Source of the DNA: Eledone cirrhosa
Taxonomy: Eukaryota
Direction of reading: 5' to 3'
Assembly: GCA_964016885.1 (NCBI GenBank)
Contig: OZ024752.1
Coordinates: 31,620,001-31,684,000, forward strand
DNA length: 64,000 bases
The position numbers and the translations under genes were made by a program. The notes beneath the pieces were generated by a model. It did not search any database, was not told where the DNA came from, and saw nothing but the letters and a program-made list of their open reading frames with translations. Positions 21,621-61,664 of this stretch are shown in pieces. The stretch's first letter is position 1. Every line of letters starts with the position of its first letter.

Positions 21621-21673
21621 CTGCCTGAAGAGGTCACAGCCAAAGATGGCTGTCACTGAAATATATATAGCAG
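21621..21673 (+). ncRNA. Minimal type-I hammerhead ribozyme
   Basis: ctgc-CTGAAGA-ggtcacagcca aaga tggctgtcact-GAAA-tatata-TA-gcag; followed by aataaa and (TA)n. Confidence 0.82.
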
Positions 21674-34694: not shown

Positions 34695-35144
34695 TCAGAA
34701 AGTAATAACACAACCTAGTAGTAGTAAAGTTATAATGCAAAGCTGATAAGATAGAATAAAAGATATAATGTCGTTACTGGCATATCGCACAGCTCTTTTA
34801 TTGTGGACATGTTCTAGAAGCCGAGTGTCTGCCTATGAATAACGCCTATCTCACTATTGCAAATAACTTTGATGCCTCTACACGGCCGTCAAAACTGGAA
34901 GTGATATCAAGCAAATTTCCTTTAAATTATACCCTGCCTTCTTGGCATGGGAAGAGGACAATAGATATTCTCAGTCAAGGCTAATCTTGTATCTATATAT
35001 GAGTATAATCTTAACACGAACCAGGCAACATTCAATCAAGCTGATACAAACAGCACCCAATAATTTCTAAACTTAAGTCCTACTGTCTTGAAAAAGAAAA
35101 TATTAGGGTCAATGTAGTTAGATATATATATATATATATATATG

Positions 35145-35806
35145 AACTAAATGAACTGACACGGATCACTAACAGATGTAGCGACCCGATGGGTGGTCTC
35201 ACCCATACCACGCAATTCCGTAATCTACTCAGATCTAATGGTTATCCCAAGCGACTGATTAACGGAATTAGAGACCCCAGACCCAATAGACAGACACCCA
35301 CTAGAAACTTAAATAAAAGCAAGTGCTTCTTTAAAATCCCCCACCTGAGTGATTATACCACGAACGCCATCCGCAGGGCCATACGGACGGAGGGACTTGA
35401 CATACATTTGGCCCACACAGGACCTTCGCTGCGAAGATGCCTCTCCAACAAACCCGACGAGTCAGATGGGACGTGTTCCCTCAGCAACTGCCCGATACGG
35501 GGGGCAGATTGCCTACGCACCTATGTCGTATATAAGATTCAATGCGATAAATGTAACAAGTTTTACATAGGTAGCACCATCCGACCCCTACATGTTCGTA
35601 TCAAGGAACATATCAACACCAACGCATCTTCCTTCCGTAAACACATCCTTAAATGCGGAAACCCACAGGGTAGACCCTTGGTCACAGTCCTAGCGACTGA
35701 ACGCAGCATCGGATCCTTAAGGACAAAGGAAGCACTTGTTATTAAGAACCTCAGACCCCCACTTAACAACCGGGCTGAGAGAAATGAGCTGACATGGCTA
35801 ACTTAA
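35145..35806 (+). mobile_element. Penelope/Poseidon-type PLE 3' fragment, GIY-YIG endonuclease
   Basis: LRSNGYPKRLI, CSLSNCPI, VVYKIQCDKCNKFYIGSTIRPLHVRIKEH, KEALVIKNLRPPLNNR. Confidence 0.9.
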
Positions 35807-56699: not shown

Positions 56700-57280
56700 A
56701 AATTAAATTATTTAGAACTACAAAGGAAGTTATTATTTTCCTTTTTTTCAAATATACCTAACTGTACCAAGGATCTCACACATTTTCCAATATATATATA
56801 TATATATATGAATACACCCAATTATATTTAAAATTACGATTGATGAATATTTTTAGATATTTCAATAATTCAATGAATTGAGTTTTTTCTTTTTTCCTAA
56901 AGCTAAGCCCAAATGTTGTTCTAATTTAATATCTCCCTATATTATTACATTATAAAAGTTATTCCTCTTTATCTCTCTCTCTCTGTAATCAACTCTCTTT
57001 TGTTTTCTAGGCTCCTACTAGCTATATTATCCCATTATCTGTTTCTTCCTCTATGTCTTTCTTCAGTAATATAAATTATTTGAATCTTTAACAGTTATAT
57101 TGCTGCCATATATTTTTTTTAAGCTTTCTCACACGCACCCTCTCTATTATATGTATTATATGTAGGTTTTTTCATGTTTTCAATATTAAGGTATATAAAT
57201 ATTGAGTTTTGTCATATATTACTCACTACCATGGCTGAATCTTAACCATCTACTATATCAGGGTATGTCATGCATCATCT

Positions 57281-57347
57281 TATTTTATCTGATGAGGACA
57301 TACTGTTGAAGTTAACTCAGTACCTCTGAAATATGTATAATAAAATA
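57281..57347 (+). ncRNA. Minimal type-I hammerhead ribozyme (family of 55299)
   Basis: tattttat-CTGATGA-ggacatactg..cagtacctct-GAAA-tatgta-TA-ataaaata. Confidence 0.8.
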
Positions 57348-57404
57348 TACTTGATCACAAGAATATCTATTTTGTTAATATTTTGAATTAATATACATAT
57401 ATAT

Positions 57405-59172: not shown

Positions 59173-59912
59173 AAACGTTCTACTTCTTGCAAAGGAAATT
59201 CCTTGAGATATTTGTTCTTCAGCTCTTTCTTATAACTCCCAGATCACGAGAAGCAAGAAACACGAAACGATGAAACGGTGATATTGCAATCGAAAGATGT
59301 ATCATGTAACTGAACAACGAAATATTTCATAAATTGCTCTATGAAACAAATCCATTAATAAATAAACACATATGTTGAAAATATGATATAATTTTCAGTT
59401 AGCTAATTCACAATCGCTCAAGGGGAAAAATCGAAATGTTACATTTGCTATTTCCTTTAAGCTAAGATGGAGGAAAGAAAATACCTGAACAAAAACAAGA
59501 AAATATATATTTTTAAAAAAATTATATTTGTAATTTTTCAAAAAGTTACATCAGGAATATATTACAGTTCATAAACATAATAGTAATTTTAACTCATGAA
59601 TAAAGATTGCATATATTATATTTTTCAAGTTGAAATGTTATACCTGAAAAGATCTGTCAGGAAATGTATTTTAAATAAATGTTATACAATAAATATTGGA
59701 CAATTATAAACATATAGCAATCCATCTTGCTATGTATATTTTAACGTCATCTCTCTCTCTCTCTCTCAACTTGCTCTCACATTCTTTCACAAAGGCGCAT
59801 TCTTACATTAATGTACACATATATACAAACACTTACAAACACATACGTACATACATACCCTTGTGTGTGTTTATAAATATTAATGTGTATACATACATAA
59901 GTGGAAGTGTGG

Positions 59913-59950
<38 letters not shown>

Positions 59951-60096
59951 AATAGGTTTTCGCTTCAAGCATAGCTTTATACAATATGTATAAATATTTC
60001 GTATCTCCAAAGAAATACGGTTTTAGGAAGCCGTAGCTATGCAAACACCGGGGGGCTAACGCCCTCTGGTGATGTCCAGCCGAAGCAAGGGGGTCA

Positions 60097-60140
60097 ACCG
60101 TCTATGCATTTCAGGCTTAACTGGCCTTCGTCAGGACGGT
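60097..60140 (-). ncRNA. Canonical minimal type-I hammerhead ribozyme in a GC-rich island
   Basis: Reverse complement accgtc-CTGACGA-aggc cagttaa gcct-GAAA-tgca-TA-gacggt. Confidence 0.88.
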
Positions 60141-60585
60141 CCCTCCCACCGCTTGCGACTGCTGGACTAGAAGACAGGCGAGAATATATACTTTTCTCGT
60201 CTGTGTAAATGATGTGATTAATCTCATTTGCATATGAAGCTGCATAAGTTGGCTCAACTTATAATAAAAAAGAAATGCAGCTTCGTTGTTTTCCTAGTGT
60301 TGGTTTTTAAAAAATCTTATTTGATTGTCTTTATTGGAACGCTTGACACTCCGTGAGAATATAAACAGGAATATTTGAACCAAACTAGAAATTCTGTTTT
60401 CATTTATATCCTAAAACTTGATGGATCCTATGTTGCATTCAAAATATAACTGCACAAGAAACCTACTCGTTTGTTAATAATAACATTCTATAAATTACGG
60501 ATACTTGCATCGGAAAAAAAACTTTGAAACTCTCAAAAATATATATTGGTTTATTTTGAAGCAATGAATTTCACCTTTAGAATTG

Positions 60586-60623
<38 letters not shown>

Positions 60624-60624
60624 G

Positions 60625-60830
60625 AGGCGGTGGATTAGCAGTATCGGTAGAGGGACGGACGCCATGCTTTATACCAAAGAGTTATGGCCCTTTATGGTCT
60701 GAGTTCAAATCCCGCCGAGGTTAACTTTGCCTTTCATCCTTACGGGGTCGATAAAATAAAGTACCAGTAATGTACTGGGTAATTGCTGGCCTTGTGCCAA
60801 AAGTAGAAACAATTATTATTATTATTATTA
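60625..60830 (+). mobile_element. tRNA-derived SINE between (TTA)n tracts
   Basis: A/B boxes and family core. Confidence 0.9.
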
Positions 60831-61664
60831 ACTTTTTCAGAGTTCATTTGAAAAGGAGAATCAGGGTGGAGAGGGAAGTGCTCGCTTCTCAGCAATTTGT
60901 TGAAAGATGGGTGAGAGAGGCAAGAATGGCCCGAGTGAATGGGCCTGCTCTCAGTATGCTCCAGTAAATTGGAGGTGGATAATTGGGAGAGGGTACTTGC
61001 ACTTGTGGTCAGGGTCACCGTGGCTTTATTAATGGGCTTTCTCCACGAGTGTCCCTCGGAAGTCTCCTCCCTATTGGGGAATTTTCCTTATTTTGCTATC
61101 TATTGCTCAATGCTTCCTTTTTTTTTTTTTTTTTTTTTTTTTTTCAAACCTTTTCAACATTTTTCAAATCTTTCGTCGTTATTTTCTCGGGATGACATCT
61201 TTTTGCATGTGTAATTTTCTCGCGAGAAGATCTCTTTGCATATGTTAGCATGTCATGTGTATTTTTGCACCACAATGTTTACTCCACAATTTCAATAATT
61301 GTTTCTACTTTTGGTACAAGGCCAGCAATTACCCAGTGCATTACTGGTACTTTAGAATTTCAATAACAACACAATTTCAATAATAACACCCGGAAAGCAA
61401 CACTTTGAAAACAATTCAACCATTGTTATCCTACACATTAATGATTTAGAAATACAAAACAATTAAGGCTTAATTTATATTTCCTTTGAGTCCCCGAGGA
61501 ATATTTTCTGCGCAAGTAAAGGTAAAGAATTACAATTTAACTTGTTTTCATCTTCTAGTCAACAAATGTGTGAAATGTAGAAGTTAAACTGAGCGGAAAC
61601 AACTTTGTTGTTTGTTTTGTTATTATTATAATTATTTATACATTTGTATTTTGTATTTATATAT

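Follow-up and report, generated by a model that had tools for sequence, protein, structure and literature searches.

Introduction

The closest described systems to the element analysed here are the non-LTR retrozymes of metazoans and the hammerhead-bearing pseudo-LTRs (pLTRs) of Penelope-like elements (PLEs). Metazoan retrozyme units are 150–450 bp long with a GC content below 50% (PMC7229834), among them axolotl Rtz_331 and the 350–390 bp units of mussel (Cervera and de la Pena, 2020, PMC7229834), and their cycle has been described as read-through transcription, dimeric cleavage, circularisation by an RtcB-type ligase and PLE-mediated integration (PMC7229834; PMC7761336). The survey by Li, Clavereau and Pollet (2026, bioRxiv 10.64898/2026.07.22.740005), which took in 31 vertebrates and, among its 4 invertebrates, 3 insects and 1 anthozoan, describes dispersed monomers as something that retrozyme families give rise to and traces such families to PLE pLTRs; of 9 predicted Xenopus retrozyme dimers, only 1 cleaved. 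The canonical metazoan type I hammerhead has a helix I of 6 bp, a helix II of 4 bp and a helix III of 1–2 bp with a palindromic loop, and the minimal hammerheads of PLEs have a long helix II (7–8 bp) and a short helix I (PMC4209133). Axolotl HHR_Amex1, found in 330-bp repeats, has a helix III of one pair with a palindromic tetraloop, and a monomer with such a helix III was 6% cleaved in one hour (PMC7229834). A bias toward insertion at TA microsatellites has been described for PLE clades (PMC8557442), and in one autonomous PLE hammerhead cleavage depended on protein, while insertion in vitro could do without that cleavage (PMC11167929). From the giant squid, 235 “hammerhead 1” Rfam loci have been reported (PMC6962438).

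Compared by description, the element at our locus resembles the non-LTR retrozymes in its canonical type I hammerhead, its non-coding and highly self-paired sequence, its GC content below 50% and its many copies, and it shares with axolotl Rtz_331 and HHR_Amex1 a unit of ~330 bp and a one-pair helix III with a palindromic tetraloop. Unlike metazoan non-LTR retrozymes with their tandem arrays and circular RNA, it is known here as a single copy at the locus. Like the solo PLE-pLTR-derived monomers described by Li, Clavereau and Pollet, it is a dispersed full-length hammerhead monomer in a PLE-rich genome, differing from them in that no parent PLE was identified for its family. With the pLTR hammerheads of PLEs (PMC4209133; PMC8557442), it has in common a type I motif near a 3′ end at (TA)n and a dimer-dependent design; unlike them, it combines a short helix II with a long GC-rich helix I, and it has neither a linked ORF at the locus nor similarity to the PLE ends nearby.

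A type I hammerhead on the minus strand

Motif analysis of the window, by which we mean the whole 64-kb stretch of DNA analysed, found a full type I hammerhead with a canonical metazoan core on the minus strand at 60096..60141, in which the CUGANGA core, the GAAA and a UH cleavage site are all present. Its parts are as follows.

60141-60135/60102-60096, minus strand: helix I, 7 bp (motif analysis)
60134-60128, minus strand: core CUGACGA (motif analysis)
60127-60124/60116-60113, minus strand: helix II, AGGC/GCCU, 4 bp, closing the 7-nt loop CAGUUAA
60112-60109, minus strand: GAAA (motif analysis)
60109-60104, minus strand: palindrome AUGCAU, including the UGCA tetraloop; helix III of 1–2 bp
60104-60103, minus strand: UA cleavage site, with the predicted cut 3′ of 60103

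Folding of the hammerhead region gave pair probabilities of 0.90–1.0 for helix I and 0.98–1.0 for helix II, and a pairing probability of 0.0 for helix III in the monomer. The original prediction had called this hammerhead both fully canonical, which agrees with what we found, and perfect, which describes the core and not helix III of the monomer. Looking at the loop 1–loop 2 contact, we found both the internal loop of helix I and the 7-nt loop 2 to be present. When two copies were cofolded, the minimum-energy structure was a strand-swapped double hammerhead in which the helix III between the two molecules is 6 bp long, at -85.5 kcal/mol versus 2 x -40.9 (-81.8) kcal/mol for the separate monomers.

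A strict type I descriptor (helix I of at least 6 bp, helix II of at least 4 bp and a short helix III, which are published canonical sizes chosen after the motif had been seen) matched once in the window, at the 60096..60141 site, and in 0 of 300 local block-wise dinucleotide shuffles. A relaxed descriptor gave six window sites against a shuffle maximum of 1, and the core pattern alone occurred 12 times versus 1.22 expected. In Rfam searches, the window had no match at the gathering score, to the hammerhead models or any other; at E ≤ 10 it gave 648 matches, the 150 listed being all microRNA models on microsatellites, and the 261 bases round the motif gave two chance matches and no hammerhead. 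We read this miss as a matter of library score, not as a biochemical feature. The lack of an Rfam score would suit a chance match, an explanation that we consider scarcely credible given the 0 of 300 shuffles and the 21 metagenome loci that matched a looser core pattern, of which none had a helix I longer than 3 bp. None of these 21 loci resembled the element (best E 0.63), and an exact 20-nt pattern matched neither metagenome nor viral contigs (0 in each).

Extent and composition of the repeat unit

The hammerhead had been assigned to a solitary, GC-rich island of about 140 bp. The island at 60040-60180 is indeed GC-rich (0.60 versus 0.32 for the window), and neither blastn nor nhmmer found a second copy of the element within the window; “solitary” thus holds locally, but the element is high-copy in the genome (1.3e5 versus 14 in run X1, below). 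The length did not stand, as the island proved to be the middle of a repeat that spans about 59950 to 60276–60285 and measures ~323–340 bp (about 59946-60276/60285). The unit and its edges comprise the following features.

59946..60276 (right end perhaps ~60285), minus strand: high-copy repeat carrying the hammerhead, placed by read depth, flank contig and TA junction
59918..59945, no strand: (TA)14 microsatellite, next to the element's 3′ end as read on the ribozyme strand
59945..59953, plus strand: left copy of a 9-nt exact direct repeat, AAAAGAAAT (family D3; 13 nt, 92%)
60268..60276, plus strand: right copy of the 9-nt direct repeat, AAAAGAAAT, which appears to be family sequence
60275..60284, no strand: perfect inverted copy (10 nt) of 60236-60245 on the right border of the element, inside or just outside it (I13)

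Because simple repeats up to 59957 were skipped in read mapping, we inferred the left end from the TA junction. The (TA)14 tract is likely to be the target into which the element inserted. On the right, a contig of run X1 with zero differences spans 60247-60538 and represents the unique flank reaching into the element; if the contigs were built on 31-letter words, as we assume, the family sequence is most likely common through 60276. A contig of the second organism (run X5) covers 8 + 44 + 17 positions, corresponding to 60208-60276. A variant at 60267 in run X1 sits 19 letters from its contig end and therefore indicates that some copy reaches about 60285, which, set against the end at 60276, is why we give the unit size as 323–340 bp. 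The two copies of the 9-nt repeat stand at a period of 323, and could represent either a terminal redundancy of the unit or a target-site duplication, the right copy looking like family sequence.

The unit as a whole has a GC content of 0.44 over 59954-60276 and so, like its size, falls within the published retrozyme range (150–450 bp, GC <50%). It is non-coding: we found no ORF and no Pfam or PLE match in it, and two of three minus-strand frames are stop-rich. A simple scan of the unit for Pol III boxes yielded one weak A-box-like match and no B box, and ARAGORN predicted 0 tRNA genes in the window; neither supports reading the unit as a tRNA-derived SINE.

Copy number and variation of the family

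We assessed depth over 59600-60900 at 80% likeness in four of eight sequencing runs: X1, perhaps the window's own source sample, in which case its junction evidence is not independent; X4, another sample; X5, which carries a second organism label; and X6, consisting of raw reduced-representation reads from another study. In run X1, the summed contig depth was 7.8e4–1.9e5 in each of the seven bins that make up 59952-60259, peaking in 60216-60259, and dropped to 1.6e4 in 60260-60303 and to 7–25 in 60304-60567, with 7–20 in 59600-59775 on the other side. The mean was 1.3e5 over 59996-60259 versus 14 over 60304-60567, and since contig depth is thus ~9,000-fold above that of the adjoining flank, we conclude that the element is a high-copy repeat. 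Short overlapping contigs inflate this depth, which therefore does not count copies; judged from the sequence data, the family would number on the order of 10^3–10^4 copies. Depth along the unit did not fall toward the 5′ end before the edge in run X1, so that no 5′-truncation gradient was apparent.

The other runs gave the same picture. Run X4 had a depth of 115–559 over 59952-60259 versus 0 in the right flank, and the raw reads of run X6 had a mean of 442 over the unit versus at most 0.55 per strand in 60304-60611, the majority variants of the unit being backed by 46–59 start places. A copy-number check had been proposed along with the original prediction, and by sequencing depth (the ~9,000-fold excess over flank in X1 and the raw reads of X6) the family is abundant. 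It also occurs under the second organism label, where a 197-nt contig of low depth lay on 60003-60157 with 9 differences, and no depth was seen on the unique flanks at partial coverage.

The family is diverse, since pieces of other copies in run X1 differ at 14–30 letters over 150–180. Among the 40 of 203 variant rows listed, nearly all other copies read another letter at 60081, 60094 and 60213, and at each of these positions the facing base pairs with the majority letter (at 60094 in an alternative register) but not with that of the window copy. No core position varies in the same 40 rows, and a common family variant at 60119 falls in loop 2 of the hammerhead. This pattern fits a window copy that may have decayed slightly from a better-folded master and is not under constraint, three cases being too few for statistical significance. 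A head-to-tail joint was absent from the 15 joints listed of 306, a weak test in which the simple repeat at the left junction was skipped and some joints were uncounted, and no loose end of the element appeared among the loose ends listed, 1,244 more existing beyond these; both lists were dominated by a very abundant SINE-like repeat in the mapped stretch. That repeat, at 60627-60805 between (ATT)n tracts, has a depth of about 2e7 in run X1 and is also present in the second organism, and short medium-copy repeat pieces with an X1 depth of 4e2–6e3 occupy 59810-59900, beside the left end of the TA tract. Of the 15 joints listed, one lies inside the element: a run X1 contig (depth 180) switches strand at 60126/60163, representing an inverted rearrangement in some element copies.

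Folding of the element

Relative to shuffles, the 60040-60180 island folded with z -4.45 on the plus strand and z -2.25 on the minus strand. The unit folds throughout; at four trial boundaries z lay between -5.8 and -7.8 for the minus strand and between -7.5 and -10.2 for the plus strand, the plus strand folding more stably than the ribozyme strand. We distinguished four structural parts outside the hammerhead core.

60074..60167, minus strand: extended helix I rod, with an internal loop and two distal helices closing the hammerhead (folds, inverted repeat)
60046..60071, minus strand: GC-rich hairpin 3′ of the rod (fold)
59969..60042, minus strand: multibranch domain on the 3′ side, with small hairpins enclosed by an 8-bp inverted repeat (fold and inverted repeats I21, I22)
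60174..60260, minus strand: three 5′ hairpins at 60174-60204, 60207-60229 and 60241-60262 (fold and inverted repeats I12, I25)

The flanking complementarity that had been described for the hammerhead was borne out as an inverted repeat (I1) made up of GTCCAGC at 60074 with GCTGGAC at 60161, AAGC at 60083 with GCTT at 60151, and a G-run at 60089 with a C-run at 60141. Circular folding of the unit was no better than linear folding (-101.1 versus -107.5) and produced no rod-like closure.

Penelope-like sequences in the window

The window is rich in fragments of PLE endonucleases and in PLE-type hammerheads.

4816, 21625, 52774, 55307 and 57289: cores of PLE-type hammerheads with a long helix II, the five clearest others in the window
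35045-35803: GIY-YIG fragment (Pfam E 7.6e-5)
48967-49725 and 53240-53689: GIY-YIG fragments, both below the curated Pfam cut-off
2823-3389 and 51963-51439: related Penelope-like pieces, by similarity to the GIY-YIG fragments

The 3′ end of our element adjoins (TA)14, 182 nt downstream of the hammerhead core, and four of the five clearest other hammerheads have a TA tract 93–187 nt downstream. The element is thus not exceptional in its TA position, contrary to the original prediction that it differed from most others in not being directly embedded in a TA tract. The contrast with Penelope-type hammerheads consequently fails for position, both ending at (TA)n, and persists for architecture, a short helix II facing the long one described in PMC4209133. 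The absence of an adjacent PLE ORF was confirmed: at this locus, tblastn with the PLE peptides of the window found none near the element, and the nearest GIY-YIG fragment found is that at 53240-53689, on the other strand. We also found no DNA similarity of the element to the PLE termini or PLE-type hammerheads in the window.

Penelope-like ORFs survive as broken pieces with GIY-YIG domains at 35045-35803, 48235-49725, 51439-51963 and 53240-53689. Two PLE-type 3′ ends, 4765-5008 (plus strand) and 52609-52823 (minus strand), with hammerhead cores at 4816 and 52774, are 82% alike and run into TA tracts, and the first lies ~1.4 kb downstream of the GIY-YIG fragment at 2823-3389. A second PLE-type hammerhead family is represented by 55196-55412 and 57225-57395 (cores 55307 and 57289), which are 92% alike; within it, 55196-55243 repeats the 3′ end at 55364-55411 in inverted orientation (97.9%), an inverted-end structure of the sort described for PLEs. 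Further hammerhead or core motifs occur at 21625 (plus), 12405 (minus), 24282 (plus), ~56282-56392, 48022 (minus) and 9231 (plus), of which those at 12405, 24282 and 56282-56392 are related (71–80%), and 12343-12438 is self-inverted. The window also holds a LINE at 44150-46931 on the minus strand, presumably RTE-like, with endonuclease and RT domains (RVT_1 E 5e-17) and an open frame of 698 aa. Domain scans of 10 of the 119 ORFs brought up no host gene.

Discussion

We interpret the stretch, with a probability of roughly 0.6, as a dispersed, slightly decayed monomer of a ~323–340 bp non-coding hammerhead repeat that is non-autonomous, Penelope-mobilised and of the non-LTR retrozyme type. The short retrozyme monomer of the original prediction therefore survives as the best reading, although as one member of an abundant family and at ~323–340 bp rather than 140. 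A fixed-length non-autonomous unit is favoured by the canonical architecture, the unit size and the lack of a 5′-truncation gradient. Since we saw only a monomer, and tandem arrays are the defining trait of non-LTR retrozymes, we say that the element works as retrozyme monomers do and stop short of counting it as a proven member of that class.

It is possible, if clearly less probable, that the window copy is insertion debris, being a solo or 5′-truncated pLTR of an autonomous PLE whose canonical hammerhead processes PLE transcripts. The order of hammerhead, ~180 nt and then (TA)n is the layout of the window's PLE-type hammerheads, and according to PMC4209133 most PLE hammerheads are single dispersed motifs, some with a small palindromic helix III. 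Other copies were followed here only to ~60276, and a longer autonomous parent may exist. This explanation has to contend with the lack of DNA similarity between the element and any PLE terminus in the window, with the absence of a PLE ORF remnant nearby, with a helix II of 4 bp and not the 7–8 bp typical of PLE minimal hammerheads (PMC4209133), and with a depth profile that shows no 5′-truncation gradient. The retrozyme and pLTR readings grade into each other, because, of 57 Xenopus retrozyme families, 24 have matches among known TEs, and almost all of these matches are to PLE termini (bioRxiv 10.64898/2026.07.22.740005).

The remaining explanations appear much weaker. The original prediction had also raised domestication, by which the window copy would be a host ribozyme in an intron or intergenic transcript, and the intact catalytic core and strongly folded rod would agree with this; yet the family is high-copy, the nearly private letters at 60081, 60094 and 60213 each break a pair formed by the majority letter (too few for significance), the second organism has the family with no depth on the unique flanks at partial coverage, and no host gene emerged from the 10 of 119 ORFs scanned, so that we consider domestication very improbable. 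We give equally little credence to the capture of a hammerhead by a non-autonomous DNA element of Helitron or other type. A CTAG at 60293-60296 lies just past the hairpin ending at 60284, an arrangement that we take to resemble a Helitron 3′ end, but family depth collapses before 60293, the unique flank contig already starts at 60247, and no TC start after A was seen at the left end.

On the retrozyme-type reading, and by analogy with published retrozymes and PLEs, master copies, probably tandem, would be transcribed by read-through of host polymerase, and pairs of hammerheads would swap strands through the AUGCAU palindrome and excise unit-length RNAs. These RNAs would be circularised by an RtcB-type ligase, after which a PLE RT/GIY-YIG protein would nick a TA-rich target and copy the RNA into it; the window copy would be one such insertion at (TA)n. 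Having one hammerhead and an unstable helix III, this copy is expected to be a poor cleaver on its own and cannot release an RNA of unit length, and since the axolotl monomer of the same helix III design was cleaved 6% in one hour, the lone window copy is probably nearly inactive. Alternatively, though we think it unlikely, the family could be of fixed length, TA-targeted, SINE-like and purely interspersed, with few or no tandem arrays. If so, its dimer-dependent ribozyme would have to cleave in trans between transcripts of separate loci, making it a copy-number-dependent RNA switch.

Our search for literature on cephalopod retrozymes found none, although one part of it is weak, having returned mostly general cephalopod papers, and octopus is not mentioned in the main texts of PMC7229834 and PMC7761336. 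The supplement of PMC7229834, or the curated Octopus vulgaris TE library cited in PMC13282606, may already contain the family. Hammerhead-bearing repeats of such size are widespread in animals, with corals, mussels and salamanders among the known cases, and the family described here adds one from a cephalopod, the SINE-like repeat at 60627-60805 and the microsatellite load of the window having an octopus-like look; as far as the literature searched goes, it would be the first retrozyme family described from cephalopods. It would matter more if it were interspersed only and cleaved in trans. It would also offer a convenient test of whether invertebrate retrozymes arise from Penelope pLTRs, a question left open in bioRxiv 10.64898/2026.07.22.740005.
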